DNA of 60,166 bases, taken from the NCBI GenBank assembly GCA_030589945.1, contig JAUUZN010000002.1, positions 1 to 60,166 of the forward strand, read 5' to 3'. The notes under the pieces were generated by a model that was given only the letters and a program-made list of their open reading frames with translations, made no database searches and was not told the DNA's origin. This DNA comes from Gammaproteobacteria bacterium (GTDB taxonomy: Bacteria > Pseudomonadota > Gammaproteobacteria > Enterobacterales > GCA-2746155). Both the position numbers and the translations under genes were made by a program. This document shows positions 2,634 to 40,172 of this stretch, in pieces (the stretch's first letter is position 1; every line of letters begins with the position of its first letter).

Positions 2634-2655
2634 GACTTATGACTAACTAAACAGC

Positions 2656-6484: not shown

Positions 6485-6498
6485 TTGATCTAGATCAA
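6485..6498 (+). promoter_or_regulatory. FNR/ANR box of ccoN
   Basis: Perfect TTGAT-CTAG-ATCAA, with a -10-like TATGAT at 6520-6525 (class II spacing). Confidence 0.9.
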
Positions 6499-6642
6499 TA
6501 CTATTTTCTTCTGTATAACTATGATCGCGATTACCTCTAGGGTTAGAGAATCACAACAACTCCACATCAGACTAGTGCTTGTAATTTGCCTATTAGTTTG
6601 AACTATTTACTTAATATTTATTGAAGAAGGTTAGAGCTCTCT

Positions 6643-8675: not shown

Positions 8676-8679
8676 GCCA

Positions 8680-8862
8680 ATGGATATTAATGTATTCAGA
8701 GGCATAACAACCTTAATTTTGTTAATCATCTTTATTGGCTTCATCTTTTGGGCATTTAGTAAAAACAGGAAAAAATCTTTTTCTGAAGCTGAATTAATGC
8801 CCTTTGATGACGAGCAAATAAAACAAATTAAAAAGCAACGTGAGGACAGCAATCATGAGTGA
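8680..8862 (+). CDS. ccoQ: cbb3 oxidase subunit IV
   Basis: Single TM helix, WAFSK...F..A..MPFDD, located between ccoO and ccoP. Confidence 0.92.
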   Translation: MDINVFRGITTLILLIIFIGFIFWAFSKNRKKSFSEAELMPFDDEQIKQIKKQREDSNHE

Positions 8863-9736
8863 TTTCTGGAGTTGGTACATCATAATTTTAGTTGTAATTA
8901 ATATTGTCGCTATCTGGGGATTGTTACATTTTACCCGTGAGCTAGACGTTACTCCTGAAGAAGACGGCACAACAGGGCATGCGTACGATGGTATTAAAGA
9001 ATATAATAATCCACTGCCCAGATGGTGGTTGTATATGTTTTATATCACCATAATTTATTCAGTGGTTTACCTCATTGTTTATCCTGGCATGGGAAATTAT
9101 GCAGGGACCTTTGGTTGGAGTTCTGCCGGCCAACATCAGGAACAGGTCGATGATGCGAACGCTAAATTTGGTCCTATTTTTGAGAAGTACGCGAAAATTG
9201 AAGTTGAAGAGTTAGTCAAAGAGAAAAAGGCCGTTGTAATGGGTCAAAGAATCTTCGCCAACACCTGCTTCGCCTGTCATGGTTCTGACGCTCGTGGTGC
9301 ACCGGGATATCCAAACTTAACAGATTCTGGATGGCTTTATGGTTCAACACCCGATGATATTAAAATGAGTATCACCAACGGTCGAACTGGCGTAATGCCT
9401 CCTATGGGTGCAGCACTCGGTGAAGATGGACTTAAAGATGTCGTTGCCTACGTGCTCACATTGTCTGGTAGAGAGTCGCCAACGGGTGATGCTGAAGCTG
9501 GCAAAGCAAAGTTTGTAATTTGCTCAGCCTGTCACGGTGCTGAAGGTAAGGGAAATCCTTTAATGGGTGCGCCTGATCTAACCGATTCGGTATGGCTTTA
9601 CGGTGGTTCTCCCATGTTAATTGCTAAAACAGTCACTGAAGGAAGAATGGGTGTAATGCCTGCTCATAGAGATATTTTAACGGCAGAGCAGATCCATTTG
9701 GTCACTGCCTATATCTATTCCTTGACCAATCAATAA
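8855..9736 (+). CDS. ccoP: cbb3 oxidase subunit III (diheme)
   Basis: GHAYDGIKEYNNPLPRWW, CFACH and CSACH. ATG at 8855 follows a GAGGA RBS. Confidence 0.98.
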   Translation: MSDFWSWYIIILVVINIVAIWGLLHFTRELDVTPEEDGTTGHAYDGIKEYNNPLPRWWLYMFYITIIYSVVYLIVYPGMGNYAGTFGWSSAGQHQEQVDDANAKFGPIFEKYAKIEVEELVKEKKAVVMGQRIFANTCFACHGSDARGAPGYPNLTDSGWLYGSTPDDIKMSITNGRTGVMPPMGAALGEDGLKDVVAYVLTLSGRESPTGDAEAGKAKFVICSACHGAEGKGNPLMGAPDLTDSVWLYGGSPMLIAKTVTEGRMGVMPAHRDILTAEQIHLVTAYIYSLTNQ

Positions 9737-9778
9737 GTGTTAAGATTATATTAATAGTTACTAATGTAAGCAGCTAAC

Positions 9779-11191
9779 ATGACTGACCCTAAAAAGGCTT
9801 CGTCGGATGCATTAAAAATAGAGCATCCGACTAGTCTCTACGCAAAATCTCCCACGGTTTACGTTAAGAAAAGTGAAGGTTACTTTGCTAACCTTCGCCT
9901 TATCTCAGCCTGGATACTGCTCGGTCTATATTATGGTTTTCCTTGGATAAATTGGAATGGTACTCAAGCGGTACTGCTCGATCTACCAGCGCGTAAATTT
10001 CACTATTTTGGCATCACTCTGTGGCCACAGGATTTTATTTATCTATCTTGGCTGCTCATTATTGCCGCCATGACCCTGTTCTTTTTTACCTCATTAGCGG
10101 GTCGTCTCTGGTGTGGCTATGCTTGTCCTCAGACTGTATGGACAAAGACATTTTTATTTATAGAGCGCATCATTGAAGGTAATCGAAACAAGCGAATGAA
10201 GCTTGATAAATCGCCATTATCTGCACGTAAAATTCGTATTAAAGCCTTTAAGCATTTCAGTTGGCTAACGTTTGCATTATTTACAGGATTTACCTTTGTA
10301 GGTTACTTCTCTCCCATTAGAGAAATGGTGACACAAATTCCTGATCTATCTTTTGGGGGTTGGGAGTCATTTTGGATCATATTTTATTCACTAGCGACAT
10401 ACGGTAACGCTGGCTGGCTTAAAGAGCAGGTGTGTATCTATATGTGCCCCTATGCACGATTCCAAAGTGCTATGTTTGATGTGAATACTCTCATTATTGC
10501 CTATGATCCCAATCGAGGAGAGTCTCGAGGATCGCGAAAAATCAAAGACAAGGACTATAAAGAGCAGGGCCTTGGTGATTGTATTGATTGTGAACAATGT
10601 GTCCATGTATGTCCGACAGGCATTGATATAAGAGACGGTTTACAATACGAATGTATTGCCTGTGCAGCCTGTATTGATACCTGTGATTCAGTCATGGAAA
10701 AGATGGATTATCCTAAGGGATTAATTCGTTATACCACAGACAATGAAAACGATGGTAAAGAAACCAGTGTATTCAGACTGAAGACAGCTGTTTATGCTGT
10801 TGTTCTCATTGGTTTATTTGTGTCTTTTGTTATTTCGTTGAATAACAGAATACCCTTTGAAGTTGATATTATCCGTGACCGAAGTACGCTTTATACCAAT
10901 ACGCTTGAGGGTTTGGTTGAGAATGTTTACAGCATTAAAATGCTTAACATGTCGCAAAAGGACATGAACTATCATATTGAAATTTCGGGTCTTGATTCAA
11001 TTATCCTATTGGGTGATTCAGATGTATTTGTGAAGGCTGGAGAAGTCGTAACGGTGCCAGTTCGTTTACAGGTTGACCCTGGACAACTTAAATCGAGCAG
11101 TACCACAATCTACTTTAAAGCCCATTCTATTGAAGACCCTACAATCGTTGCAGATTCTGAAAGTCGATTCCTAGGTCCGGTGAGCAGATAA
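9779..11191 (+). CDS. ccoG: Cytochrome c oxidase accessory ferredoxin-like protein
   Basis: GRLWCGYACPQTVW, CIYMCPY, CIDCEQCVHVCP and CIACAACIDTC motifs. Confidence 0.98.
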   Translation: MTDPKKASSDALKIEHPTSLYAKSPTVYVKKSEGYFANLRLISAWILLGLYYGFPWINWNGTQAVLLDLPARKFHYFGITLWPQDFIYLSWLLIIAAMTLFFFTSLAGRLWCGYACPQTVWTKTFLFIERIIEGNRNKRMKLDKSPLSARKIRIKAFKHFSWLTFALFTGFTFVGYFSPIREMVTQIPDLSFGGWESFWIIFYSLATYGNAGWLKEQVCIYMCPYARFQSAMFDVNTLIIAYDPNRGESRGSRKIKDKDYKEQGLGDCIDCEQCVHVCPTGIDIRDGLQYECIACAACIDTCDSVMEKMDYPKGLIRYTTDNENDGKETSVFRLKTAVYAVVLIGLFVSFVISLNNRIPFEVDIIRDRSTLYTNTLEGLVENVYSIKMLNMSQKDMNYHIEISGLDSIILLGDSDVFVKAGEVVTVPVRLQVDPGQLKSSSTTIYFKAHSIEDPTIVADSESRFLGPVSR

Positions 11192-11194
11192 AAT

Positions 11195-11713
11195 ATGGTT
11201 AAATCAACATTGATTAATGGAGTCCCTGAGCATCTTGTACCCTGGTACAAACAGTTTTGGCCTTGGTTTATTATTTCATTACCAGCAACTGTAGTTGTTG
11301 CGGGACTAGTCACCGTATATATCGCTTTTGATAATGCCGATAGTCTGGTTGCAGATGATTATTACAAACAAGGGTTAGCAATAAATGGCAATATTAAAAT
11401 GCAAACCAATGCATCGACCTATGGTTATGCAGCATTATTGAAAAGAATGCCTGACAATCGATTATTTCTTAAGTTTGACAATGCAACGCCAGATACCGAA
11501 ACTCTGAGTTTGAAATGGGTGCATCCGGGTGATAGTGAGAAAGATTTTGTGATGATTTTGAACCGTCAATTGGATGGGAGTTTTCAAAATAAAAGTGAAA
11601 ATGATTTTTCAGGTCGCTGGTACTTGCAACTATCAGCAGATAGCGATTGGCTGATTAAATCTGAAATTAGTTCTGGGATCACGACCGTACATCTTACGCC
11701 GCGCATAAATTAG
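11195..11713 (+). CDS. ccoH: FixH/CcoH family protein
   Basis: PWYKQFWPWFII and DDYYKQGLAIN motifs; operon position. Confidence 0.93.
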   Translation: MVKSTLINGVPEHLVPWYKQFWPWFIISLPATVVVAGLVTVYIAFDNADSLVADDYYKQGLAINGNIKMQTNASTYGYAALLKRMPDNRLFLKFDNATPDTETLSLKWVHPGDSEKDFVMILNRQLDGSFQNKSENDFSGRWYLQLSADSDWLIKSEISSGITTVHLTPRIN

Positions 11714-11722
11714 TAGGCCAAT

Positions 11723-14191
11723 ATGGCCGATTCTTCAAATCATTGTTTTCACTGCGGACTTCCTAACACTGCTACTGCTGATGCAAAATCAAAATATCCT
11801 GTAGTGGTGAATGATGAAACTGAGTATGTCTGCTGTCCGGGCTGTCAGGCAGTCTGTGAGTCGATAATCAGCCTCGGGTTATCTGATTATTACCAATTCC
11901 GTGAAAACCTACCTGATGTGTCTCCCAAAGAGCTCGAAGCAGATCTCGAACAACTTGAATTTTATGATCATCAAAAGGTTCTGAGCAAATACACGTCATT
12001 AGACGATGAGCAAAATCAAAGCATCGCACTAATGATTCAAGGGATAGTCTGTTCAGCCTGTACTTGGTTAATTGAATCTCGTATTAGCAAGATGCCTGGG
12101 ATCAAAATAATCTCAGTAAATCAAACGACAAGTCGTGCATTGGTGAGTTGGGATCCAGAAATTGTAAAACTGAGTGAGATTCTTAAATCAATCAATCTAC
12201 TGGGTTATCAGGCACAACCCTATGATCAAAAAATTAAAGAGCAACAACTCATTGATGAAAATAAACGGGCTCTTAAAAAGCTAGCCGTTGCCGGTCTAGG
12301 TATGATGCAAGTGATGATGTATAGCCTAGGGTTTTATTTGGACACGGGTTCAGAGATGAGTCACTCAACGGCAACCATATTGCGTTGGACGAGTTTACTG
12401 ATATCAGCTCCTGTAGTTTTTTATTCCGCGAGTTCATTTTATATCTCAGCATTTAAAGCGTTAAAAAATAAAGCAGTGAACATGGATGTGCCAGTGACCA
12501 TTGCGATTTTTTCAGCCTGGGGAGCAAGCCTCTATACAACATTGATGGGACAGGGCGAGGTCTATTTTGATTCAGTGAGTATGTTTGTTTTCTTCCTACT
12601 CACGGGTCGATATTTGCAGATGAAAGCCATTCATCGTGCAAGCCGTGTATTGGAATTTAAACTCAAGTCTAAACCAGAAACAGCGTTACGTATTTCTGAG
12701 AATGTTGAAAAAAGAGTCATTCAAGAAAGAGTGTTACTTGATGATGTGTTGGTCGATGATCATCTGTTGATTAAACCGGGTCAGCAAATTCCCTGTGACG
12801 GTATCGTCATTAAGGGTGAGACCTCGGTTGATGAGTCTTTATTAACCGGTGAGTCCATGCCCTTGCATCGTAAGATTGGGGATAATGTGGCTGCGGGTTC
12901 AATTAATAAAGGTGATGCTATCACAATTGCGGTCACTAAAATTGCTGAGGATTCTACTCTTAACGGTATTATCAAATTAATGCAAAGAGCGCAGCAGGAT
13001 AAACCCGATATTCAATTGTTCGCGGATAAAATTGCCAGTTATTTTGTGACCATGGTGCTTGTGGTCGCCCTAAGTACTGGGTTGTTTTGGTTGCAACAGG
13101 ATAGTCATCAGGCGTTTAATGCGGTTTTGGCTGTGCTGGTCGTCACCTGTCCTTGTGCCTTATCTCTTGCGACACCCGTAGCGATTACCACCGCACTGGG
13201 TCGACTGACGAGCATGTCATTAATACTGAACCGTACTAAGGTCATGAGTTCATTGAGTGAGTTGACCGATGTTGTTTTTGATAAGACCGGTACACTGACA
13301 ACCGGTGGGTTTAGTGTCAGTGAATTAGACAACCGCTCTGAGATTTTTGATTCGGAAGTACTCTATATTATTTCTCTCATAGAAAGTGAATCCGAACATC
13401 CCATTGCAACAGCATTTCAAAACAATGATACGAGTACAATTGTTCAGGAGTACGCAAAAAAGTATCAACTTGATGAAACATCATTGATTTCTTCGAAAGG
13501 TATTGAGGCTATAATCTCTGGGGAAAGGTGGATGATTGGGAATTCAAGTATTCTTAGCAATGAAACAATTTATTCAGCAGATGAAAAACTCCCTGCTGGT
13601 CAGTTAGCGCTCTATTTGCTGCAAGATGAACAATGTATAGCGAAGGTGATTGTCAAAACTGAAATTAGAAAAGATGCTGCAACAACAATCGAGCAACTTA
13701 AATCGATGGGCATAAAAGTTCATCTGCTAAGTGGTGATCAACAAAGCAATGTGCAACAGACTGCTGATGAGTTAGCTATTGATACGTTTTATGGCGAGCA
13801 AACACCCGAACAAAAACTAGCGTACATTAATGCACTAACATCAAAGGGGTTGAATGTAGCCATGGTGGGAGATGGTGTCAATGACAGTCCTGCAATGGCA
13901 GCATCACTGGTGTCCTTTGCCATTGCTAAATCAACTGACATCACCAAGACCAGCGCAGATATTGTTATGCTCTCTGATCAGTTGAGTTCTATCTTAGATG
14001 CCATTAGACTTTCAAAATCTACTCGCAGGATTATTAAACAAAACCTACTTTGGGCCCTGTCTTATAATGTCTTGGCAATCCCACTTGCAGTCTCGGGTTT
14101 TATTACACCTTGGATTGCTGCTGCGGGTATGTCGTTGAGTTCTTTGGTGGTGGTTTTTAATGCATTAAGATTAAATCGGAGGATCACTTGA
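11723..14191 (+). CDS. ccoI: Cu-translocating P1B ATPase
   Basis: CFHCG/CCPGC N-terminal domain, CSAC, TGES, CPC, DKTGT and GDGVND motifs. Confidence 0.97.
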   Translation: MADSSNHCFHCGLPNTATADAKSKYPVVVNDETEYVCCPGCQAVCESIISLGLSDYYQFRENLPDVSPKELEADLEQLEFYDHQKVLSKYTSLDDEQNQSIALMIQGIVCSACTWLIESRISKMPGIKIISVNQTTSRALVSWDPEIVKLSEILKSINLLGYQAQPYDQKIKEQQLIDENKRALKKLAVAGLGMMQVMMYSLGFYLDTGSEMSHSTATILRWTSLLISAPVVFYSASSFYISAFKALKNKAVNMDVPVTIAIFSAWGASLYTTLMGQGEVYFDSVSMFVFFLLTGRYLQMKAIHRASRVLEFKLKSKPETALRISENVEKRVIQERVLLDDVLVDDHLLIKPGQQIPCDGIVIKGETSVDESLLTGESMPLHRKIGDNVAAGSINKGDAITIAVTKIAEDSTLNGIIKLMQRAQQDKPDIQLFADKIASYFVTMVLVVALSTGLFWLQQDSHQAFNAVLAVLVVTCPCALSLATPVAITTALGRLTSMSLILNRTKVMSSLSELTDVVFDKTGTLTTGGFSVSELDNRSEIFDSEVLYIISLIESESEHPIATAFQNNDTSTIVQEYAKKYQLDETSLISSKGIEAIISGERWMIGNSSILSNETIYSADEKLPAGQLALYLLQDEQCIAKVIVKTEIRKDAATTIEQLKSMGIKVHLLSGDQQSNVQQTADELAIDTFYGEQTPEQKLAYINALTSKGLNVAMVGDGVNDSPAMAASLVSFAIAKSTDITKTSADIVMLSDQLSSILDAIRLSKSTRRIIKQNLLWALSYNVLAIPLAVSGFITPWIAAAGMSLSSLVVVFNALRLNRRIT

Positions 14192-28503: not shown

Positions 28504-29862
28504 TCAGGCTGTTTCTTTTCTTAAAAATGCTTTTATCATAACGATAATAAATAAAGTGCCACCAATAATAGAAATGGCTCCACCTGCGCCCATTAATCCC
28601 ATGCTAGCAATTTGTGGTAAGTGCTCCAACACATCTTCAGCACCAAATGTTTTACGCTGCACACCATAACCTCCAGACCAGACTAAGCCGATAATATGCA
28701 TTAGCTGTCCACCACCATAGATATAAGGTTGCCAACAGGCCATCTTTGACATCGGTCTAGAAAATCCTAGATATGGAAGAAGATGGTAAGCGAGTCCCAT
28801 GAATGCCAAGGTTACACCAACAATTGAACCATGATAATGGGCGGGCACTACCACATTCATTCCATCGATCATAAATCCGATAATTCCACCTGCCGCAAAT
28901 AATGTTATTGAGCTGAGTAGCGCTGCTTTAACGGGTAATTTATTAGCATGAAAAGTAGGAGACTTAATAATAGAAAACACCACAACAAATCCCAGAGGGA
29001 TGGAAGCTAATCCACCATACTTCATCAAATCAGTGAAGGCTGTTCTGTGCTCTAGTGAAACAACATCATATTGGAGATAAATGAAAGGAGTCACTACAAG
29101 AGGGAAGGCCGCTAACAAAAATAGCCATTGGGCAATTTTCGGCGAGAAGTCAATGCTGATTCCTGCAGCCTTGCCTATCCATAACCAGGCAACTAACAAT
29201 AACAATGTATGAGTATATTGCAGTATGTGACCGGAACCCCAAAATAAAACCTCGTAGAAAGCAGTACTTTCATAGGACGACGGTATCCCTACATAACTTG
29301 CAACCAACGAAATCAATGCCAATAGAGCAATCCATGCGCTGATATAGATGCCCGTATCTAACGCGTCAGAAGGACTAGGATTAGAAAAGTTAGGGGGGCT
29401 TGATGTTATTCTCAGTAAAATTTGTAATAGCATTCCCAAGCCAAAAATAGACAAGCCTGTGATGAATATTGGATGATCTAATATTGGGATATAATTATTC
29501 ATCAGCGGATTACCCACACCGATAAATGGAGCAATACTGATTGCTAGGGTTCCAGTTATCGCTAATCCAATGGCAATTTTATTGAGAACATTATTTTTAG
29601 AATCCGTGGTAAAACTCCACAAAACACCTGCAAAAGAAACAAACCATATCAATACTGAGAGATCCACATGAACAACCAAAGCCACATAAAAGAAGTTGCT
29701 AAAAGGAATCATTTCCTTTATCACGGGTGTACGTGATAGAACCAATACTATAGAAAATATTCCTGCCAAAACTAGTGAAACAACACTTAATTTTAACCAG
29801 GCTGATGCTATAGAATTTTCGGCATTGATTGATTTTGAAAATTGAAAATATTGACTTGTCAT
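28504..29862 (-). CDS. Degenerate heme-copper oxidase subunit I-like membrane protein
   Basis: About 12 TM helices. Keeps ALVVHVD (helix II His), WGSGHILQY and PAHYHG (helix X HxH), but has no helix VII His-His pair. Confidence 0.75.
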   Translation of the reverse strand: MTSQYFQFSKSINAENSIASAWLKLSVVSLVLAGIFSIVLVLSRTPVIKEMIPFSNFFYVALVVHVDLSVLIWFVSFAGVLWSFTTDSKNNVLNKIAIGLAITGTLAISIAPFIGVGNPLMNNYIPILDHPIFITGLSIFGLGMLLQILLRITSSPPNFSNPSPSDALDTGIYISAWIALLALISLVASYVGIPSSYESTAFYEVLFWGSGHILQYTHTLLLLVAWLWIGKAAGISIDFSPKIAQWLFLLAAFPLVVTPFIYLQYDVVSLEHRTAFTDLMKYGGLASIPLGFVVVFSIIKSPTFHANKLPVKAALLSSITLFAAGGIIGFMIDGMNVVVPAHYHGSIVGVTLAFMGLAYHLLPYLGFSRPMSKMACWQPYIYGGGQLMHIIGLVWSGGYGVQRKTFGAEDVLEHLPQIASMGLMGAGGAISIIGGTLFIIVMIKAFLRKETA

Positions 29863-29864: not shown

Positions 29865-30908
29865 TTATTGTTTAACTTCTCGGTTAATAAATATCATGAT
29901 AGAGAGCAATATCATTGCTCCGCCCTGATGCGCAACAGCAACAGGGACTGGCATGTTGAAAATTAATGTAGTGACACCCAGAGTTACTTGGATCACTAGC
30001 ATCGCTAAAAGGAAATGTGCTGCCTGACTGCTTTTTCTGGTAATCGCGAGACGTCTTAGTGCAAAACTAAAAACGGGGACTATCACCAGCAAAAGATAGG
30101 CTGTCATTCGATGGTTGAATTGGATCGTAGTTATGTTCTCAAACCAGTTTAACCAAAAGGGTACAAGGGTATACATGCCGTCAGGAATAAACTTTCCTTC
30201 CATCAGTGGAAACGTATTGTAGGCATAGCCGGCTTTAGTTCCAGCAACGAAGCCACCCGTGCTAATCATAAAAACAACCAAGCCTGTTAACGCCAAAGAG
30301 TAGCGATATAATGTTCGCCCTTGAGCAGTGTTAACAAGTTCACGGCCTTGTTGTAACAAACCAAAAGCAACCCATAAGATATAGCTAAATATCATCACAG
30401 CGGCAATTAAATGGGCCGTTAATCGATATTGACTAACCTGTGGGTCATTGACTAAACCGCTTTTAACCATGTACCAGCCGAGTACACCTTGTAGGCCGCC
30501 AAGGATAAACATGGTTATCATCTGCGGTAACATTTTGCGACGAATTCTACCGGCAAACCAGAAGAATAAGAATGGTATTAGAAATATCAATCCAATCAAT
30601 CGGCCCAATACGCGGTGAGAATATTCAAAATAAAAAATGCTTTTAAATTCATCCAAAGACATACCAATGTTTAACTTTTGATACTCTGGAAATTCTTGGT
30701 AATGTTTGAATGCTTGCATCCACTGGATTTCATTAAGCGGTGGTATTACACCCATAATGGGCTTCCAATCGACCATTGATAAACCGGAATGAGTGAGGCG
30801 GGTAGCTCCTCCTAAAATGATCATAAAAAAAATAACGGCAGCAACAATAAATAACCAAGTAGCCACCTGTTTGTCATGAGCGTTTTGTAATGATGTATCT
30901 ATACTCAT
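29865..30908 (-). CDS. ctaA: Heme A synthase, Cys-free COX15 type
   Basis: GGATRLTHSGLSM, FEYSHR..GR, RLTAHL, QFNHR and VAHQ motifs. Confidence 0.93.
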   Translation of the reverse strand: MSIDTSLQNAHDKQVATWLFIVAAVIFFMIILGGATRLTHSGLSMVDWKPIMGVIPPLNEIQWMQAFKHYQEFPEYQKLNIGMSLDEFKSIFYFEYSHRVLGRLIGLIFLIPFLFFWFAGRIRRKMLPQMITMFILGGLQGVLGWYMVKSGLVNDPQVSQYRLTAHLIAAVMIFSYILWVAFGLLQQGRELVNTAQGRTLYRYSLALTGLVVFMISTGGFVAGTKAGYAYNTFPLMEGKFIPDGMYTLVPFWLNWFENITTIQFNHRMTAYLLLVIVPVFSFALRRLAITRKSSQAAHFLLAMLVIQVTLGVTTLIFNMPVPVAVAHQGGAMILLSIMIFINREVKQ

Positions 30909-31918
30909 GAAAATGATTTTCCCGACATTTTTCTATTAAGAGATGTTAAAAACATTAATAACACGGCAGTCATGAAGTTATGAGAGAGCACCAAAAACAA
31001 CGGCAGTTGAACTAACAATGTGCTGATCCCTAATAAGAACTGAGCGACGACTAAAGAAAGCACCAACAAGCAGTCCTTGGCTAACCGACGATCGGAACTC
31101 CATTCGGATCGCATGAGAAATGTCACTATCGATATGAAATAGGCGAGAACAATTACACCTAAAAAATGATGTATGATTTGAATGAGCTTCATCTTGTCTT
31201 CAAGTATAACTTTGTCTTGGTTGTCCAATTGCAAAAAACCGACTGGATTGAAAGCCTCAATAATGTTTACACTCTCTATTTGCTTGGCACCACAATTAAA
31301 TAAACTTTCACAGCTAGAACCTGCAAAGTTAACACTGGTCCATCCCCCCCAGAATATTTGCAACAAAATAATAAACATACCAATACGAACGAAGGGAACA
31401 AGAGGTGATTCCATATGGATTTCTTTCGTTCCTGATATTTTTAGATAAAGATGTAAAAGCAACGCGACCAATACTAAACCCCCAACAAAATTACCCATTA
31501 AGAGAATGGGTAATGGCTGATTAGGATGAAACGGGCCTATGGCTGCTAAAAATACGGTCACTGATAAAATTGCCGTAGGAATGCGGTTACCGAGTATGTT
31601 TCGATACTTTTCACTCATCGTTAATAAAAAGAGGAATAAAATGATTAAGCCTAATGTACTGGTCACTATTCGATGAGCAATTCTTTCCATTCGATAAGGA
31701 GTGGCACGGGCTTCACTGGTTAGTACATTAACACCTTGAACACTTTTGTTATTTTGATATTGACCATAGCAGGAGGGCCATGGCTCACAACCAACGCCAG
31801 ATTCAGCTAGACGCACATAGCTACTGAGAACCACCGTCATTAAGGCGAATCCCAAAGCGATTATTATTAATGCAGGTAACCATCGGCTGACCTTAGTATT
31901 TGGTGTTTCGATATTCAA
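30905..31918 (-). CDS. Divergent second CtaA/COX15 family protein (Cys-pair type)
   Basis: YVRLAESGVGCEPWPSCYG, RIAHR, CESLFNC, IIHH and LSHN motifs. Confidence 0.78.
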   Translation of the reverse strand: MNIETPNTKVSRWLPALIIIALGFALMTVVLSSYVRLAESGVGCEPWPSCYGQYQNNKSVQGVNVLTSEARATPYRMERIAHRIVTSTLGLIILFLFLLTMSEKYRNILGNRIPTAILSVTVFLAAIGPFHPNQPLPILLMGNFVGGLVLVALLLHLYLKISGTKEIHMESPLVPFVRIGMFIILLQIFWGGWTSVNFAGSSCESLFNCGAKQIESVNIIEAFNPVGFLQLDNQDKVILEDKMKLIQIIHHFLGVIVLAYFISIVTFLMRSEWSSDRRLAKDCLLVLSLVVAQFLLGISTLLVQLPLFLVLSHNFMTAVLLMFLTSLNRKMSGKSFS

Positions 31919-31938: not shown

Positions 31939-32472
31939 TTATTTAAGAAGTAGCATTACTTCATGCCGAATTTTAGATATATCATTTGCTTTGAAACCTT
32001 GGTGTGCATACCGTAACACACCCTGCTTATCAATAAGGTATGAAGCAGGTAATACGTTAATCTGGTACAGTTTGTAAATATCGAGTTCAGCAGTATGCAC
32101 CACTGGATAATCTACTGGATATTTTACAAGAAAATCTCTGCCATTATTTGGATCATTGTCTAAATTAATAGCAAGAATTTCAAATTCATCGTTGCCAAGT
32201 TCTTTGCGCATTTTATCCAACAATGGCATGGATGTTAAACAGGGTTTGCACCAAGAAGCCCAAAAATCCAGATAGATAACTTTGCCGCGGTAATTTGTCA
32301 GTCTATCGTCAATGTTACCATCAGACATAAGTGATTGAAAAATAATTTCCGGTGCCATTTCACCAATTTTTAAAACCGGTGGCATTTTGCCAACAGGAGT
32401 TTCAACATCGCTGCAACCACTGATAAAAACAAGCCATAATATTAAAAAACAATTCAATAAATACTGTCGCAT
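31939..32472 (-). CDS. TlpA family disulfide reductase lipoprotein
   Basis: Lipobox ISGC and DFWASWCKPC motif. Confidence 0.92.
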   Translation of the reverse strand: MRQYLLNCFLILWLVFISGCSDVETPVGKMPPVLKIGEMAPEIIFQSLMSDGNIDDRLTNYRGKVIYLDFWASWCKPCLTSMPLLDKMRKELGNDEFEILAINLDNDPNNGRDFLVKYPVDYPVVHTAELDIYKLYQINVLPASYLIDKQGVLRYAHQGFKANDISKIRHEVMLLLK

Positions 32473-32825: not shown

Positions 32826-34901
32826 CTAAAGCTTGTTACTTGTTCCCCCTAAAATGATGAATTTTTTGGTATCCGGATCAAAGTCAATCACCAGTACACT
32901 TCTGGAAGCCAGATTAATTTCTCTGGTTTCCTGATAATTATAATCATCTAAATCTCTGTGATCCTTTAATTTTACAGTAATTTTATGCATCCCTGCTTTA
33001 ACGGTAAAGCGATGATATAATTTGGCCCTGCCATCATTATTCAAACCCGCCGGCATGACCACCTTGTGGTAAGACTCCACATCATTTATAAGTAATTGAA
33101 ACTCAATTGAGGAGCGTTCTCTAGGACATACTTTGGCGAGCCTCATATTAGCCGGTAAACTAAGCATTTCTTCATCAGAGCGAAAGCGACACTCACCAAT
33201 GATTTGACCCGTATGACGCAAACTTAGTTTAATGGTTGCTTCACCTTCTTCAATCTGTGTATAGGTTGGTGAATTAGAAAAGTAGCCAATAAATAATATT
33301 ATTGCCGCATAAAACAATGCCTGCCCAAAATAATTCTTACCTTTCTTTTGGAATCTGATATTACCTATATCTTCTGACACTTTTCCAGAATCTAAAAGCT
33401 GAGAAAAATTATTGACCTCCGATTTCAATGCTGGCAATTCCATTGCTCCAGCCCAACGGACTCTAACCTTATTATAATCTTTTGCAGCTGCCGTCCTTAA
33501 ATGCGGACTGCGTTCTCCTTTAAATCGTTCATCAATCCATTGATTTCCTAATCGGTAATAACAGTTTTCTAAGCAACAGCCGGTGACCATTACACCATCG
33601 GCATGATCTTTTCTTATCAAGTAGTCGACAAAAGAGGGGGGCAAAAAACCTATACAGGGCAGGCTAATTGGGATGGTGTTTTTGATGCCAATTTGCTCTA
33701 TGTCAGCACCTTTTTCGCAACCAAAGATAATGAGCCTGTCTTTACCCTTCAGTTGTCCAAGCTTGTTGATAATTTCGTGTTTAAATACATCAATAGAATA
33801 ATCCGGTATGCCGATACCACTCTTCAATTCATCAATGGTTTGAAAGGGTGTAGCAGATGGACAAGAACCCGTGCAAATTCCACAGGCTGTACATTTGTCA
33901 GGATTTACCACAGCGATACGTGGACTTTTATTATTAGGATGGGGTTCAAAACTAATTGCGTCGAATGGACAGTCGAGATCACACCAGCCACAACCATTAC
34001 AGCGATCTGGATTGATAACGGCTGCAGGCACTTTTTTGTGCTTCATTATTAACGGCAGGAAGCTTAAAAACATTGATATCCCTACCAGTAATACCCAAAC
34101 TGTCCCAGGTCCCCAATAATCAATCAAGGGATAAACATTAAGATAAAACCAATCAATTGGAATATTAACCGGTGTCTGACTTAAATCGGCGCGACCAGAA
34201 CTGATTGCAGGCTTTATTAGTGATAGCACAATGAACGCTATAATGGTTCCAATGGCCAAGCCTCTCGGAGGATTAGTTTTCGCTTTTGAGACACGGCTAA
34301 TATGGATAAACATAGCCAGCATCATAAATAGCGGAATACCAAAATGAAGAAATACCATCAATGAGAAGAAACGATCACTCACCGTATCGTTGCTTAAAAA
34401 GTTTCGAGCCATTGGATCGCCAAAAGTAGGCAACCAATCAAGAAATTCCATTGTGGCAACTGCAACATATTGTGCAAATTGATCCCATACTAGCCAATAG
34501 CCACCAATTGCTGCAGCAAACATAAACCATAGCAGTGGGATGCCTGTGAACCATGAAAACCAACGGGTACCGGTGAAGCGTCCCAGTGAGAATTCGCGCA
34601 CTAGATGCAGCGTTACTGTTAATGCTAATGCATCTGAGCAATAGCGGTGTAAGCTTCTTACAACTCCACCTAAATACCATTGTTCATTGGTTAAATACTG
34701 AAGCGAGTCATAGGCACCATTAATGCTGGTTTCAAAAAATATAAACAGATAAAGGCCGGTAACGGTTAAAATCCAAAAGAAATAAAATGATAAGGCGCCC
34801 AGTTGATAGAAGGGATTCCAATCGTCATCAAAAAATAAATTGAATGCTGCTTCCACACGATCAAATAAATAATGTAGAGACTTTTGTAAAACAGATAGCA
34901 T
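32826..34901 (-). CDS. Cytochrome b - 2x[4Fe-4S] - MvhD/FlpD-like - periplasmic domain fusion
   Basis: Cytochrome b motifs (RSLHRY, LHLVR, GYWLVWDQ, FLHF), CNGCGWCDLDCP, CTACGICTGSCP, then FGC...PCIG...GCCLENCYYRLGN, then one TM and a soluble domain. Confidence 0.88.
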   Translation of the reverse strand: MLSVLQKSLHYLFDRVEAAFNLFFDDDWNPFYQLGALSFYFFWILTVTGLYLFIFFETSINGAYDSLQYLTNEQWYLGGVVRSLHRYCSDALALTVTLHLVREFSLGRFTGTRWFSWFTGIPLLWFMFAAAIGGYWLVWDQFAQYVAVATMEFLDWLPTFGDPMARNFLSNDTVSDRFFSLMVFLHFGIPLFMMLAMFIHISRVSKAKTNPPRGLAIGTIIAFIVLSLIKPAISSGRADLSQTPVNIPIDWFYLNVYPLIDYWGPGTVWVLLVGISMFLSFLPLIMKHKKVPAAVINPDRCNGCGWCDLDCPFDAISFEPHPNNKSPRIAVVNPDKCTACGICTGSCPSATPFQTIDELKSGIGIPDYSIDVFKHEIINKLGQLKGKDRLIIFGCEKGADIEQIGIKNTIPISLPCIGFLPPSFVDYLIRKDHADGVMVTGCCLENCYYRLGNQWIDERFKGERSPHLRTAAAKDYNKVRVRWAGAMELPALKSEVNNFSQLLDSGKVSEDIGNIRFQKKGKNYFGQALFYAAIILFIGYFSNSPTYTQIEEGEATIKLSLRHTGQIIGECRFRSDEEMLSLPANMRLAKVCPRERSSIEFQLLINDVESYHKVVMPAGLNNDGRAKLYHRFTVKAGMHKITVKLKDHRDLDDYNYQETREINLASRSVLVIDFDPDTKKFIILGGTSNKL

Positions 34902-34994: not shown

Positions 34995-35915
34995 TTAATC
35001 TGTTTTATCGGTTACAGCTGAATCATTATTCTCGTCGTTGTGATTACCTGTTTTACTTAATTTCCACTCACGAACAAAAATTCTAACGAAGAATATACCC
35101 ATAACCAAGGCAACAAATATTCCAATAAAAATGGAATAGTTAAAATAATACTTATCTTGGGAAGGATCGTAAACAGTGCAGAATAGTTTTATCTTTGTCG
35201 AAATGGCAGAGAATAAAGAAGCACTCTTATTTTCACCAAAGACTAGCTCTTTTAGTGGTTCGACAAAATTGGGTGTTTGAGGTCTCATCCCATAAACTTG
35301 ACGGTAAACAACAGAATCTTTATCGAGTATGCTGGCTTGTATCATGTGATCAAAACCTTGGGGTGAGGCTGAAAAAATAAATCCCAAATCTCGTGCTAAG
35401 GCACTCATTGTTGCCGCATCTGTTGAAAGGAAAAACCAGTTTTTTGAACCTGAACTGTGCGACTTTGCAAACTGAGCCATTGCCTTGGGAGTGTCTATGT
35501 GAGTATCAAAACCAATAGTAATGACATTAAAACTATCCTCACCTAACACCTGCGTAGCTTTTTCAACCACCCGATTTAAATTTTCTGTAATGGTTGGACA
35601 AATATGATGACAACTAGTGTATATCATACTCACTATCAATGGTTTTCCACTGAAGGTTTTAGTGGTTAATATTGCACCATCCGATGAAGTAAAACGATAA
35701 TGACCTACCGATTGACCGATAGCAGCCTGACTGATTGCCAGTGCTTGCTCATTGCTATATTGGCTAATCTCTTCAGTTGCGGTATTTTTGTTTTTAATAT
35801 GGTCCTTGGCGGCTACATCTGATGTAGCAGCATTTGCTGTAGCACCGAAAGCCAAAAGGAATAAACAACTAACGGTGAATCGACGATTAAATCCCCGTTG
35901 AAAAAAATTAAACAT
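34995..35915 (-). CDS. SCO family copper chaperone
   Basis: YTSCHHICP (CxxxC), FDHM His, C-terminal TM helix. Confidence 0.9.
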   Translation of the reverse strand: MFNFFQRGFNRRFTVSCLFLLAFGATANAATSDVAAKDHIKNKNTATEEISQYSNEQALAISQAAIGQSVGHYRFTSSDGAILTTKTFSGKPLIVSMIYTSCHHICPTITENLNRVVEKATQVLGEDSFNVITIGFDTHIDTPKAMAQFAKSHSSGSKNWFFLSTDAATMSALARDLGFIFSASPQGFDHMIQASILDKDSVVYRQVYGMRPQTPNFVEPLKELVFGENKSASLFSAISTKIKLFCTVYDPSQDKYYFNYSIFIGIFVALVMGIFFVRIFVREWKLSKTGNHNDENNDSAVTDKTD

Positions 35916-35940: not shown

Positions 35941-35983
35941 CATTAGGCATTCCATTAGGCTCTCCATTAGGCTCTCCATTAGG
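35941..35983. repeat. 12-bp tandem repeat (~3.6 copies) spanning the ctaB stop
   Basis: CATTAGGCATTC CATTAGGCTCTC CATTAGGCTCTC CATTAGG. Confidence 0.85.
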
Positions 35984-36842
35984 TAAAGCCATTAAGTACT
36001 GAGCCGAGTAAAACCATTGTCAACTGTATTAATGATGCAAAAAAACAACTCATAGCACTCTTCTTATTGGTATTAATAACCAATTGTATACTTTTAATTA
36101 TAAAATAGGCGCCACCTGATAGGGCGCAGATTAGATAAACAACTCCCATTTCATAGAAAAAAGGCAAAATGGATACCGTCACCAGCATTAATGTGTGAAT
36201 GAGAATGACGATTGCCGCTTTTTCATCGCCTATCACTACTGGCAACATGGGCACCTTAGCAAGTGCATAATCTTTGTGAAGAGCAATGGCCAGACTCCAA
36301 AAATGTGGAGGTGTCCAAAGAAATAAAACCATGGCCAGTAATATTGAGGAACTATTTAAATCTGGTGATGCGGCAGCAGCTCCGGCCAATACTGCAAAAC
36401 TGCCAGATACACCGCCAATGATTATGTTGATACTGCTTCGACGTTTTAACCAGAGGGTATAAACGACTCCATAAAAGAAAGCGCCTAAGAATAAATAAAT
36501 CGCTACCATCGAATTAAAAACTATCCAGGCGGTAACCACTGAAGCGACAAGAATAGCTGCAATAATAAATAACCAAATAGAATGGTGTTTAATAACACCC
36601 GTTACAAAGGGTCTATTTTGCGTACGTGGCATTACCGAATCGAGATCTCTCTCAGCATATTGATTAAAAGCACCAGCGCTTGCTGAAGCCAAAACCACCA
36701 GCACCAACAACAGTGTGACTTCTGCTAGTGAAAGTTCTCTACCTGGTGTCACCGCATAGCCTGCAAGTGCAGTGACCGACATCATTATTCCGATCCTAAG
36801 TTTAAACAGATCGACCAATTGTCTGAGCATTAGAAACCTCAA
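35979..36842 (-). CDS. ctaB: Protoheme IX farnesyltransferase (heme O synthase)
   Basis: NQYAERDLD..M.RT..RP, YTLWLKRR and LWTPPHFWSLA motifs. Confidence 0.95.
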   Translation of the reverse strand: MRFLMLRQLVDLFKLRIGIMMSVTALAGYAVTPGRELSLAEVTLLLVLVVLASASAGAFNQYAERDLDSVMPRTQNRPFVTGVIKHHSIWLFIIAAILVASVVTAWIVFNSMVAIYLFLGAFFYGVVYTLWLKRRSSINIIIGGVSGSFAVLAGAAAASPDLNSSSILLAMVLFLWTPPHFWSLAIALHKDYALAKVPMLPVVIGDEKAAIVILIHTLMLVTVSILPFFYEMGVVYLICALSGGAYFIIKSIQLVINTNKKSAMSCFFASLIQLTMVLLGSVLNGFT

Positions 36843-36930: not shown

Positions 36931-38637
36931 CTAACTGAGGCCCCATGTTTCTGACAGATACTTCCAGTTGATGAAGTAATAGGCGGCGAAAGTTGCTAAA
37001 AATACCATCGCTAAGAGGAATGTTCCCGGAATAGCGTTGTTGGTTGATTTATGTAGCGTAGCATACTGTTCATCAGTCACTGCCGGTACAATCATTTGCT
37101 GAGAGCACTTTTCATCATCAGCCAGTTTCTTACCAAAGAGTAATGAACCGACGATGAGTAAACAAAACATCGCTCCACCGATGACTGCCAACACTACACT
37201 TAAACCATTGAGTGACATCATCGCTAATGCTGATGATGCGAATTCATAAGGGAAGGTGGCATCTGTGAATGAAGTATCCCAATGTCTGCGTGGTACACCC
37301 ATGGTTCCAGCGCCCATCATGAACATTGAAACACCAACCATTCCCAGACTGAAGATATAAGGTTGCATGGAACAGAGTTTCTTAAAGATTAGTTCTCGGC
37401 GGAATATTATCGGTACCAGCCAGTAGGTAAGTCCCATAAATGTCAAGGTTGTACCCAATACAACGGTAGCGTGAAAGTGACCGGGAACATAGAGGGTGTT
37501 GTGGATTAGCAAGTTCAATTGCTCAGTACCCATCATGACTCCGGTAATACCACCGATGAATCCAAAACCAAATATGGATATCATGATTGAAGAGAAGGTT
37601 GGGTTGCCCCAAGGCGCTTTTCGTAACCACTCAAATAATCCATTATTAAAACCACGTGCTCTTTGTGCTGCTTCCATGGCACCTGGAACTGTCACACCAT
37701 GAACCATACTTGCCATAACCGCAAGATACATAGCGTAACTGGTATTGAACATCTTCCATTCAGCGCTAACGCCCGGATCAACCAATAAATGGTGAGCACT
37801 GGCGATTTGAAGAACAGCAATATAGAGTAAAAATGCAAAACGACTGACTTTTTCAGAGAGTGGTTTGGCACCAAACATAACGCTGGCAACCAAATACCAA
37901 ATGGTAATGTGCGTGGCGACGTTAATTTGTTGAGAAGAGTGTCCGAAAGCCCACCAGATTAAACGATAAACACCAGCATCAATATGGCTCACTAAGCCCA
38001 ATTGCCAGAAAAATGTGGGTAATAGGATTAACGCGCCAGATGCGATAGTAAAGACTGCGATAATACAGGCGGTTAATGCACCAAAGGTTACCAGTGGTAA
38101 CGATCCCTCATAGGTTTTCTCTTTCTTTGCGATAACTAATGTACCGAGAAAGACGAAGCAACCTAACAGGGCGCCTACGGCAAAGAGTATCAATCCCAAA
38201 TAAAAGGACCAATGAGCAGGCATCGGTGCATAGGAGGTCATCATTACAGCTGAATTAAGTTTCCACACTGCGTAGTTGTTCATTAAAGCACCAACGACCA
38301 TGAGGCCAAATCCAGCCCATGCTACTTTTGGGGCAGCCAACCGAACGCGAAGTACGGCGGAGGATGCAAAGTAGAGTACTGCAATTTCGAAAAAGATGAT
38401 CCAAAATATTAATACATTGATGCCATGACCCGTTAGAGCGGTATAAAAGTCTTGTGCTCCTAATAAATGCACTTCGGGCCAGCGTGTTAAACCAACACCT
38501 AGCCCCATAAATCCACCTACTAATAAGAAAACAACAGCAGCTACGGCGTTAGCTTTTATCAGCGACAATGCTGGTTTGTGTAGTAAAAGCCCAGTATCAG
38601 GGCATGTTCGGAAATTATTGTCTGACATTAGAGTCAC
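36931..38637 (-). CDS. Heme-copper oxidoreductase subunit I, B-family related, probable eNOR nitric oxide reductase
   Basis: All six His ligands present (TGHG, FGHSSQQ, SAHH, GHFH). The His+4 position is Gln, not Tyr or Glu. Confidence 0.85.
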   Translation of the reverse strand: MTLMSDNNFRTCPDTGLLLHKPALSLIKANAVAAVVFLLVGGFMGLGVGLTRWPEVHLLGAQDFYTALTGHGINVLIFWIIFFEIAVLYFASSAVLRVRLAAPKVAWAGFGLMVVGALMNNYAVWKLNSAVMMTSYAPMPAHWSFYLGLILFAVGALLGCFVFLGTLVIAKKEKTYEGSLPLVTFGALTACIIAVFTIASGALILLPTFFWQLGLVSHIDAGVYRLIWWAFGHSSQQINVATHITIWYLVASVMFGAKPLSEKVSRFAFLLYIAVLQIASAHHLLVDPGVSAEWKMFNTSYAMYLAVMASMVHGVTVPGAMEAAQRARGFNNGLFEWLRKAPWGNPTFSSIMISIFGFGFIGGITGVMMGTEQLNLLIHNTLYVPGHFHATVVLGTTLTFMGLTYWLVPIIFRRELIFKKLCSMQPYIFSLGMVGVSMFMMGAGTMGVPRRHWDTSFTDATFPYEFASSALAMMSLNGLSVVLAVIGGAMFCLLIVGSLLFGKKLADDEKCSQQMIVPAVTDEQYATLHKSTNNAIPGTFLLAMVFLATFAAYYFINWKYLSETWGLS

Positions 38638-38646: not shown

Positions 38647-39189
38647 TTATTTAACGACGTGGATCTTACCCACCATATTGTGATGACCTATACCGCAGAA
38701 TTCATTACAAATAATTGAAAATTCTCCGGATTTGTTAGGCGTAATGGTAAAGACATGTTCATATCCAGGTAACACTTGAATATTGATGTTTTCAGGTTGT
38801 AGAGAAAACCCATGATTCCAGTCCATAGAAGTCAAATGTAATCGATAACTTTGACCTTCTTTAAGTTCAAGAATTGGCCACCAGTCCCAGAGTCTCGCTA
38901 CAAGATAAACGTCGGAACCAATAGGTGGAGCAACCACTGGAAATTTACGGTCACCTTCTTCACGTATGGTAAATTCATCAACCATGGCTTGGGCTTTCTT
39001 TTGAAACAATTGAGGAGTGGTTCGATAGGTTTCAGCCGAGAGGTTTTGGTTTCCATACACGTGCCACAAAGGCATCATTAGTGTAAGAATTAAACCCCAG
39101 ACTATCACTATTCCAATCCAGATAAGTTCAACCCTTTCGATGGGCTCTTTCCACCATAGTTTTTGAGCCGGTGGTGATAGACATGTCAT
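38647..39189 (-). CDS. CuA-containing subunit II
   Basis: One TM helix; HGFS...CNEFCGIGHHNM CuA motif. Confidence 0.95.
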   Translation of the reverse strand: MTCLSPPAQKLWWKEPIERVELIWIGIVIVWGLILTLMMPLWHVYGNQNLSAETYRTTPQLFQKKAQAMVDEFTIREEGDRKFPVVAPPIGSDVYLVARLWDWWPILELKEGQSYRLHLTSMDWNHGFSLQPENINIQVLPGYEHVFTITPNKSGEFSIICNEFCGIGHHNMVGKIHVVK

Positions 39190-39545: not shown

Positions 39546-39559
39546 TTGACTTAAATCAA
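39546..39559 (-). promoter_or_regulatory. FNR/DNR box of the eNOR-like operon
   Basis: TTGAC-TTAA-ATCAA, with a -10-like TACACT at 39520-39515 on the minus strand. Confidence 0.82.
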
Positions 39560-39656: not shown

Positions 39657-40172
39657 TTAATCCTTTTTTTTCTCAGCCGCATTAAATAATATTTCACTGA
39701 TTGCATCACCCGAACCGTCGTAAAGTGCTCCCCAATGGAGATCTTTACCGCCACAGATATTAATAGTCTTAGTTCGCCAATTTTCTAGCAAAGTGTTTCG
39801 AGTAGGATCTGTACCTGCCCATTCCAATGCTGCAGTTTTATGTATTGCATTCACATAAACTATTTCTCTTCTGAGCATTCCAAAGGAAACGTACTGTCGA
39901 TAGTAATCATCCAGATTTACTGCTTTTCCTGGTGCAAATTTTTCTAGCGCTGCAGGAAGCAATGTCTCAATTTTTTCAACTAATTTAATATCTAACTCGT
40001 TATAACTGGTTCTAAAGGATGGTGTCATCCTTGAACATTGCTTAAACATTTTTAAAATTTGGGGAACCTCATTAAGAATACTGTAATTTGTTTCTTTCGT
40101 TTCCGCCGAGATCTGAAGGGAGAAAGAAAAAACAACACACCATAGATTTATTAAAAAAAGACTACGTTTCAA
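39657..40172 (-). CDS. Exported hypothetical protein
   Basis: Signal peptide-like N-terminus, YYRQY..F motif, AGG RBS; no function recognised. Confidence 0.6.
   Translation of the reverse strand: MKRSLFLINLWCVVFSFSLQISAETKETNYSILNEVPQILKMFKQCSRMTPSFRTSYNELDIKLVEKIETLLPAALEKFAPGKAVNLDDYYRQYVSFGMLRREIVYVNAIHKTAALEWAGTDPTRNTLLENWRTKTINICGGKDLHWGALYDGSGDAISEILFNAAEKKKD

Follow-up and report, generated by a model that had tools for sequence, protein, structure and literature searches.

Results

A heme-copper oxidase-like gene closes a heme enzyme cluster

The stretch of DNA that we analyzed, referred to as the window, comprises 60,166 nucleotides (nt) of contig JAUUZN010000002.1 from a gammaproteobacterium (assembly GCA_030589945.1). 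It contains a co-directional minus-strand array of genes that begins with a cupredoxin subunit II and ends with the gene of interest here, an open reading frame (ORF) on the minus strand at 28504..29862 that has an ATG start and encodes 452 residues; we use HCOx as the working name of its product. The original prediction, made from the letters of the window, gave the correct coordinates and the 2-nt distance between the stop of the ctaA-like gene at 29865..30908 and the HCOx start, whereas the strand needed correction to minus. HCOx belongs to the heme-copper oxidoreductase (HCO) superfamily and has the subunit I fold. On the sequence and genomic comparisons described below, it is a real, conserved, mislabeled and functional variant within that superfamily, for which we suggest a putative role in the maturation of heme cofactors.

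The Pfam COX1 model (PF00115) matched HCOx residues 18–429 with an E-value of 2.9e-13 (49.9 bits, compared to a cut-off of 34.8). COX1 was the only Pfam family found at E ≤0.01, with no match to NnrS (PF05940), PF02628, or the Surf1 family PF02104, and the NCBIfam search returned no family at E ≤0.001, including the CcoN model TIGR00780. The sole weak match in a sequence search of the PDB was 7deg_A (E 0.31 with the single sequence, 4.4e-4 with a profile). The AlphaFold2 model, built from 29 relatives (pLDDT 84.4, pTM 0.88), displayed 12 long helices, in agreement with the earlier description of a 452-residue, oxidase-like protein with about 12 transmembrane segments. The top Foldseek match of the model was subunit I of the Thermus thermophilus ba3 oxidase (TM 0.75), and VIA-align superpositions on subunit I of A-, B-, and C-type oxidases and of cNOR gave Z values of 26–29 over ∼400 residues with root-mean-square deviations of 3.3–4.2 Å. 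The model and its superposition on the ba3 enzyme are thus HCO-like, as had been anticipated; because the Z values are tied within ∼2 units, the fold does not tell which oxidase family is nearest. The genome contains four PF00115 genes, namely an A-type gene on another contig, a ccoN-like gene at 6643-8055, the gene for a 568-residue eNOR-like subunit I in the array, and HCOx.

Heme ligands are conserved and the second metal site is lost across the family

Residues were mapped by a profile-profile alignment of 29 HCOx sequences with 9 relatives of the neighboring 568-residue eNOR-like subunit I (hhalign probability of 99.8%). H65 aligned with the helix II His of the low-spin heme, H342-Y-H344 with the helix X heme His pair, and W208-x3-H212 with the helix VI W-x3-H motif, which places H212 at the position of a CuB/FeB His. 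R403-K404 aligned with the conserved Arg-Arg pair that we take to be the heme propionate-binding pair, and the canonical loop motif is present as Y124-x-P126. The helix VII His-His pair is replaced by F260-I261. The alignment therefore bears out the helix II His and helix X HYH motif reported previously as well as the reported loss of the CuB/FeB His-His pair, and a full metal site is missing: one of the three CuB/FeB His residues is kept (H212), and the other two, along with the cross-link Tyr, are missing family-wide, in accord with the view that HCOx is not a normal terminal oxidase. Y248 and S261, which the eNOR-like enzyme shares with ba3 and which are presumably proton-path residues, correspond to L227 and to a variable site in HCOx.

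Conservation was assessed in a set of 121 sequences that consisted of the query and 120 of the 150 listed representatives at 50% identity (33–50% identical; 30 fragments or long forms were omitted). Y124, W208, G211, H212, H342, G385, and G427 were invariant in this set, and H65, N123, P126, E204, Q215, H344, R403, and K404 were at least 90% conserved. A consistent substitute for the lost His pair was sought in the family alignments and none was seen, nor does a His pair occur there. The helix VI H-x3-Y motif (GHILQY) that had been pointed out is present in this protein, but it is not a family trait; at Y216, at least 90% of the rows in a 12-row alignment across subfamilies have Phe, as do most rows in another alignment, and the Tyr is peculiar to HCOx of this window and its close kin. 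The retention of heme ligands under purifying selection, combined with family-wide loss of the metal site, suggests a real hemoprotein rather than a decaying copy, and we regard HCOx as a putative di-heme membrane protein lacking a second metal.

HCOx represents a large family that includes fusion proteins

A word-index protein search yielded more than 7018 homologues as a lower bound, the best 119 of which were of equal length and 49–75% identical. These 119 carried the names 'cbb3-type cytochrome c oxidase subunit I', 'cytochrome c oxidase subunit 1' or 'hypothetical', or had no name; judged by its residues, the cbb3-type name of HCOx in databases is a mislabel. An exhaustive search of 50%-identity representatives provided 1433 matches at E ≤0.001 and 620 at E ≤1e-30. 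Family size of this order argues against HCOx being a chance ORF. In-frame stops (one or two) were present in 6 of 124 listed matches, including G729:C68:6324-7652 and G440:C22:449-1813, and may represent pseudogenes, sequencing errors or recoding.

Fusions were surveyed in 150 listed representatives, with 8 of these being 650 residues or longer. One was a 761-residue fusion of cytochrome b to HCOx, an architecture that was found again on a second contig, and six carried C-terminal TPR repeats, some of which weakly matched the CcmH/CycH TPR model. A fusion of HCOx with a UbiA/heme O synthase (CtaB) domain (748 residues) was observed on a single contig, and a search for longer forms identified a 1011-residue protein, encoded on a 70-kb contig, that combines cytochrome b, two [4Fe-4S] units, and HCOx. 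P0124 and P0271 each combine the cytochrome b/iron-sulfur (FeS) protein and HCOx in one chain. An apparent HCOx-SCO fusion in Ideonella (L043) was rejected as an artefact of ORF calling, as the HCOx match and the SCO domain lie in different frames, and long open frames at HCOx in G302 (793 residues) and G214 (619 residues) have extensions that contain no extra Pfam domain and are probably read-through in high-GC DNA.

The gene cluster in the window

The array and its associated features are as follows.

28504..29862, minus strand: HCOx, CuB-less paralogue of heme-copper oxidase subunit I (452 residues; Pfam COX1, fold, ligand mapping, and conservation)
29865..30908, minus strand: typical CtaA/Cox15 heme A synthase (347 residues; PF02628 E 7.9e-110, 367 bits; NF045570 309 bits, under its cut-off)
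30905..31918, minus strand: divergent second CtaA-family gene (337 residues; PF02628 E 8.2e-36, 124 bits; 4-nt overlap with the ctaA start)
31939..32472, minus strand: TlpA/ResA-like periplasmic thiol-disulfide oxidoreductase (177 residues; Redoxin and AhpC-TSA Pfam matches; ResA/TlpA NCBIfam matches under their cut-offs)
32826..34901, minus strand: fusion of di-heme cytochrome b, 2x[4Fe-4S] ferredoxin, and a FlpD/MvhD-like part (691 residues; Pfam domains)
34995..35915, minus strand: SCO1/SenC-like copper chaperone (306 residues; PF02630 E 6.1e-14)
35979..36842, minus strand: heme O synthase CtaB (287 residues; TIGR01473 268.5 bits compared to a cut-off of 210.3; UbiA Pfam match)
36931..38637, minus strand: eNOR-like HCO subunit I (568 residues; PF00115 E 7.3e-66; three metal His residues, Gln in place of the ba3 cross-link Tyr)
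38647..39189, minus strand: small cupredoxin subunit II of the eNOR-like enzyme (180 residues; TIGR02866 CoxB E 2.1e-12, under its cut-off; weak COX2 Pfam match)
39546..39559, no strand assigned: putative FNR/Anr-type box with one mismatch, TTGACTTAAATCAA (intergenic, upstream of the subunit II gene)

A second, degenerate subunit I encoded with heme A synthases had been proposed for this locus, and the pair of CtaA genes is indeed directly upstream of HCOx. Divergent CtaA relatives (25–32% identity) are also present at the far end of Woeseiaceae-type eNOR-like clusters. Besides the tandem pair in the window, the genome has a third CtaA copy on contig C179.

The 568-residue subunit I aligned with the ba3 protein at E ∼1e-48, with GHSSQQ opposite GHPIVY and with the His-His pair and the helix X His residues kept. 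It is 60–65% identical to subunit I of Woeseiaceae-type and Nitrosomonadales loci (60% to that of L041, a Nitrosomonadales locus), and we call it eNOR-like because its kin in L041 exhibits the gene order of the Ferrigenium eNOR operon.

The window contains 22 FNR-type boxes with at most one mismatch to the consensus TTGAT-N4-ATCAA, compared to 7.0 expected from shuffled sequences. These candidate boxes fit weakly with low-oxygen expression of the cluster. Perfect palindromes of this type occur at 6485-6498, upstream of the ccoN-like gene that starts at 6643, and at 53110-53123, upstream of the gene at 53197. A 171-residue ORF (39657-40172, minus strand) that precedes the eNOR-like cluster on its upstream side has a signal-peptide-like start and gave no Pfam or NCBIfam match; similarity to a 170-residue ORF that adjoins HCOx in L041 was sought and not found.

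HCOx genes reside beside genes for heme enzyme maturation

HCOx relatives were found in 416 species by a pattern scan that took one genome per species, and 80 loci were kept. Neighbors were scored by tblastn using the window proteins plus SURF1, COX3, A-type COX1/COX2, CtaG, DUF2189, and housekeeping CtaA/CtaB/SCO proteins, and Pfam checks were made for 85 neighboring ORFs at 10 loci. After removal of 32 of the 80 loci, in which one flank was shorter than 3 kb, neighbors within 8 kb were counted at the 48 well-flanked loci. HCO or maturation genes were near HCOx in 46 of the 48, with CtaA at 28, CtaB at 22, SCO at 35, and SURF1 at 9 loci. The cytochrome b/FeS protein was encoded at 23 loci, lying within 3 kb of HCOx at 22. 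The eNOR-like subunit I was present at 24 loci and A-type markers at 20, such that 23 loci were eNOR-like only, 19 were aa3-type only, and one was both. Three loci (L004, L040, and L071) had CtaA only, with or without the cytochrome b/FeS protein or SCO, and two Thioploca/Halobeggiatoa loci (L074 and L079) lacked recognized genes.

Individual loci illustrate this diversity. An alphaproteobacterial locus (L007) reads HCOx-COX2-COX1-CtaB-CtaG-COX3 with a divergent ctaA, a Nitrospirota locus (L008) reads COX3-SCO-COX2-COX1-CtaB-HCOx, L018 has COX3...SURF1-x-CtaA-CtaB convergent with HCOx, and in L004 a gene for a Crp/Fnr-type regulator is followed by cytochrome b/FeS-CtaA-HCOx. In L041, from a metagenome-assembled genome, HCOx is located between a gene for a protein with cytochrome b, 2Fe-2S, FAD-, and NAD-binding parts and one for a protein with cytochrome b, 4Fe-4S, and FlpD parts, with the two fusion genes lying at 5479-7404 and 9408-10985; this arrangement resembles an input line for electrons from NAD(P)H, and the cytochrome b/FeS fusion protein may donate electrons to heme A synthase. 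HCOx keeps its genomic position in Gamma-, Beta-, and Alphaproteobacteria as well as in Nitrospirota. The aa3-type clusters of Thiothrix-type genomes possess a gene for a DUF2189 membrane protein in the usual place of ctaA, which is located elsewhere in those genomes; the DUF2189 genes are at L014:6985-8004 (plus strand), L014:10248-11078 (minus strand), and L030:2798-3583 (minus strand), and the second of the two in L014 overlaps the HCOx start.

For a second set of loci, 401 genomes of the phylum were searched with the HCOx protein of G369, resulting in 94 carriers, and the loci of the best 30 genomes were used, 29 of them non-window. In these 29, which are best matches with many from a single family (f266) rather than a random sample, CtaA directly adjoined HCOx at 22 loci and the cytochrome b/FeS protein at 15; a co-directional triad of cytochrome b/FeS, HCOx, and CtaA genes was found at 14, and a small cupredoxin gene accompanied HCOx and CtaA at 4. 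CtaA is the strongest single association of HCOx genes.

HCOx occurs with and without the eNOR-like enzyme

The phyletic pattern was determined in 400 scored genomes of the class to which the window belongs (G248 was not scorable), using thresholds of E ≤1e-20 for HCOx, E ≤1e-60 for the eNOR-like subunit I, and a PF02628 match at E ≤1e-10 for CtaA. HCOx was present in 36 genomes, the eNOR-like subunit I in 23 (matches 61–79% identical, save the window's own and one partial match), and CtaA in 269, a tally that includes four genomes flagged as unpublished (G039, G141, G296, and G308), none carrying HCOx. HCOx was encoded in 19 of the 23 eNOR-like genomes compared to 17 of the 377 others, and CtaA in 32 of the 36 HCOx genomes compared to 237 of the 364 others; related genomes are not independent, and these co-occurrence counts ignore kinship. 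In 13 of the 19 shared genomes the two genes were on one contig within ∼14 kb, and four genomes (G032, G244, G304, and G385) had an eNOR-like gene and no HCOx. A role of HCOx as a general replacement of CtaA was considered and ruled out by the presence of CtaA in 32 of the 36 carriers and by the location of ctaA elsewhere in Thiothrix-type genomes.

We inspected the neighborhoods in 14 of the 17 genomes that have HCOx only. Six had aa3-type clusters (G053, G240, G279, G302, G324, and G387), two had HCOx beside SCO (G137 and G319), and two had it in operons of System II, the ResB/CcsA route of cytochrome c maturation (G267 and G369). HCOx had no recognized neighbor in G117 and G158, and the contigs were too short in G090 and G099, the latter with a match at 25–26% identity that may not be a true family member. 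By coordinates, CtaA was within 200 nt of HCOx in G346 and G355.

A quick maximum-likelihood tree was calculated for 81 HCOx proteins (80 from 84 loci plus that of the window, after removal of rows with fewer than 380 aligned residues or with stops). The eNOR-type and aa3-type contexts were interleaved, with the starred branches forcing at least 9 and at least 4 changes, which suggests that HCOx moves between enzyme types. The two System II proteins were on long branches, and their placement is unsafe. The original prediction had tied HCOx to the eNOR-like enzyme and had proposed phylogenetic profiling against eNOR subunit I. The association was recovered in 19 of the 23 eNOR-like genomes, but 17 of the 36 carriers lacked an eNOR-like gene at our threshold, 19 of the 48 well-flanked loci were aa3-type only, and four genomes had HCOx in System II operons. 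HCOx thus occurs independently of eNOR clusters, a result that refutes its restriction to eNOR and leaves the link to heme enzyme maturation in place in a broadened form.

Divergent HCOx proteins are encoded in cytochrome c maturation operons

Divergent HCOx genes were found inside ResB-CcsA-HCOx-(redoxin)-TPR operons in four genomes from four families. In G267 and G369, HCOx proteins that are 34–38% identical are encoded in ResB-CcsA-HCOx-TPR and ResB-CcsA-HCOx-redoxin-TPR operons, and the order CcsA-HCOx-TPR was found in two more genomes (G532 and G448). These System II-linked proteins keep H65, H212, Q215, H342, H344, R403, and K404. No PF02628 match above the cut-off was found in G369 or G267, the latter having a weak sub-cut-off match (21.9 bits, E 7.5e-5). 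The presence of HCOx in System II operons, in two genomes lacking an above-cut-off PF02628 match, suggests that the common denominator is heme handling and not the reduction of nitric oxide (NO) or O2.

At one of these loci (L083, G267:C9), the operon is flanked by genes for multiheme cytochromes c (paired CXXCH, c7-like) and NHL-repeat proteins (1994-4348 and 8378-11761). The ResB-CcsA-HCOx-TPR operon of L083 may be a maturation set dedicated to an extracellular electron-transfer module.

Discussion

Proposed role of HCOx

We tentatively propose, at slightly less than even confidence, that HCOx descends from a heme-copper oxidase subunit I that kept both heme pockets and lost its CuB/FeB site, and that it assists heme-cofactor maturation, mainly at CtaA, as an electron relay or heme handler; part of the same proposal is that HCOx would be neither a terminal oxidase nor an NO reductase. 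In such an arrangement, a bis-His low-spin heme (H65/H344) would reside in the membrane next to CtaA, and a five-coordinate heme would be held by H342 with H212, Q215, and E204 nearby. These hemes would pass electrons to or from CtaA, or would hold a heme under processing in the right redox state, and the electrons may come from the co-encoded cytochrome b/FeS protein where one is present. In this window, HCOx would support the supply of heme A to the eNOR-like enzyme under low oxygen. We prefer a redox role because the fusions and the triad link HCOx to electron carriers, because the strictly conserved, canonical heme ligation looks permanent, and because buried hemes are poorly suited to hand-over. 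The earlier idea of an HCO fold repurposed for heme chaperoning, heme modification or assembly is thus upheld in its general form by the maturation genes at 46 of 48 loci, but not in its restriction to eNOR.

Several observations weigh against this proposal. We infer heme binding from residues, and the redox role and partner contacts are deduced in turn. The cytochrome b/FeS partner is encoded at only 23 of the 48 well-flanked loci and at none of the aa3-type ones; since this partner is often missing, a fed relay would not hold for all members of the family unless electrons came from quinol or some other donor in its place. The 237 CtaA-bearing genomes that lack HCOx indicate that it is dispensable for heme A as such, and 4 of the 23 eNOR-like genomes lack it as well. 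Hemes buried in a 12-helix protein would be badly placed for hand-over, and the contact with CtaA is presumed. A distal His and Gln beside an open heme would equally suit small-molecule chemistry. Lastly, the counts carry a kinship bias, with Woeseiaceae dominating the eNOR-type loci and family f266 the triad loci.

Alternative explanations

HCOx could instead be a passive scaffold or chaperone, that is, a surrogate subunit I with no redox role that holds newly made heme O or heme A or docks the apo-subunit with Sco, Surf1, or CtaB, much as NifEN stands in for NifDK. The heme pockets of HCOx match those of such clients, HCOx adjoins ctaB, SCO, and SURF1 in aa3-type clusters devoid of a reductase partner, TPR fusions and TPR neighbors in System II operons suggest protein-protein docking, and one CtaB fusion is known. 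The bioRxiv preprint 10.64898/2026.01.22.701106, of which we consulted a part, applies the term 'scaffold' to a gene that is very probably this one, but gives this name without evidence in that part. A passive holder would leave unexplained the fusions to, and tight triad with, cytochrome b/4Fe-4S proteins, and the strict bis-His site and the propionate-binding pair look permanent rather than transient. We consider this explanation rather doubtful, although it is the strongest of the alternatives.

Decidedly less likely is that HCOx is an enzyme proper, with the cytochrome b/FeS protein feeding a heme-only site (the H342 heme with distal H212, Q215, and E204) that acts on O2, H2O2, or NO, an activity that might include a direct share in the oxidation of heme O, yielding heme A when oxygen is very low. 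A complete-looking path runs from FlpD/4Fe-4S (or NAD/FAD/2Fe-2S) through cytochrome b to HCOx, with fusions joining its parts; the invariant or nearly invariant H212, Q215, and E204 exceed what heme binding needs; and an FNR-like box is located upstream of the cluster. We know of no HCO that turns over O2 or NO while lacking the second metal. Moreover, HCOx has no dedicated subunit II, the residues corresponding to Y248 and S261 of the eNOR-like and ba3 enzymes are not kept (L227 and a variable site), and the reductase is missing in the aa3-type and System II contexts. In the literature, the supply of heme A to eNOR when oxygen is scarce is posed as a question in the preprint (part consulted; 10.64898/2026.01.22.701106), which would suit such an enzyme, whereas the active-site His residues are conserved in all families but gNOR according to the consulted part of Murali et al. 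2024 (PMC11214002), which argues against it.

That HCOx is a decaying, functionless duplicate of subunit I is barely conceivable: the loss of two metal ligands, as in a pseudo-enzyme, and the matches with in-frame stops (6 of 124 listed) are set against 620 clusters at 50% identity (E <1e-30), heme ligands that are invariant at 33–50% overall identity, and a genomic position kept across Gamma-, Beta-, and Alphaproteobacteria and Nitrospirota.

Implications

To our knowledge, the electron donor of bacterial heme A synthase and the route by which heme A reaches subunit I are both open questions. HCOx, as a widespread, conserved and copper-less relative of oxidase subunit I that accompanies ctaA and in some cases forms one polypeptide with a reductase-like cytochrome b, offers a concrete candidate for such roles. 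The preprint, in the part consulted, asks in addition how cells make heme A for eNOR with almost no oxygen around (10.64898/2026.01.22.701106).

Extending our proposal of a redox accessory to CtaA, one may speculate, although we consider it unlikely, that HCOx together with the cytochrome b/FeS (in some lineages FAD/NAD) fusions forms the module, so far missing, that supplies electrons to bacterial heme A synthase or activates oxygen for it. Such a module would allow heme A to be made at the trace oxygen levels that call for eNOR or high-affinity oxidases; its ResB-CcsA cousins would do an equivalent redox job on heme in cytochrome c maturation, and the oxidase fold would be a general device for the redox poising of heme. 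On the practical side, HCOx is routinely annotated as a cbb3-type or generic oxidase subunit I, and such mislabeling of the family inflates the counts of terminal oxidases in genomes and metagenomes.

Comparison with known systems

HCOx is not mentioned in the examined main-text parts of the paper that describes eNOR, where the catalytic subunit I is characterized as derived from the B family, as having all three His residues of the metal site, and as paired with a CuA subunit II (Murali et al. 2024, PMC11214002). The gene at 36931-38637 has the features that define eNOR subunit I; HCOx does not, as its metal site is incomplete and it is 24–27% identical to the eNOR-like subunit. HCOx is like the subunit I of the B family and of eNOR (ba3 and the gene at 36931-38637) in its 12-helix fold, the helix II and helix X heme His residues, the first metal His, the W-x3-H motif, the Y-x-P loop, and the basic pair after helix XI. 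It is unlike them in having hydrophobic residues in place of the helix VII His-His pair, in the loss of the cross-link Tyr, in being ∼115 residues shorter, in having no cupredoxin partner of its own, and in being encoded with the maturation genes of several enzyme types.

In the part of the preprint that we consulted (bioRxiv 10.64898/2026.01.22.701106), the eNOR operon of Ferrigenium straubiae contains an 'eNOR scaffold protein' of 'unknown function', and the gene order is described as eNOR II, eNOR I, heme o synthase, sco1, a cytochrome b/FeS/FAD/NAD protein, ..., and a cytochrome b/FeS protein. L041 reproduces this order with HCOx between the two cytochrome b genes, and on this basis of gene order, not sequence, the Ferrigenium 'eNOR scaffold protein' very probably belongs to the same family as HCOx. 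The open-access literature that we searched yielded no description of the family beyond that one sentence. The preprint ties the scaffold gene to eNOR, whereas the HCOx family also occurs in aa3-type and System II clusters.

The resemblance to CcoN of the cbb3 oxidases, from which HCOx often takes its name, is confined to the shared PF00115 superfamily; HCOx has neither a TIGR00780 match nor the metal His pair. Surf1/Shy1 serves aa3-type oxidases as their heme a chaperone, presumably at a step between heme A synthase and subunit I. It shares aa3-type clusters with HCOx (9 of 48 loci) and resembles it in proposed role only: Surf1 comprises two helices plus a periplasmic domain, and the 12-helix HCOx, a putative di-heme protein, has no PF02104 match. 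CcmF of System I is a polytopic membrane protein that contains a fixed bis-His b heme and presumably reduces another heme, one in transit, ahead of the attachment of that heme to the client. The logic of CcmF is that which we propose for HCOx, but the fold is unrelated, and the cytochrome c operons in which HCOx is encoded are those of System II (ResB/CcsA).

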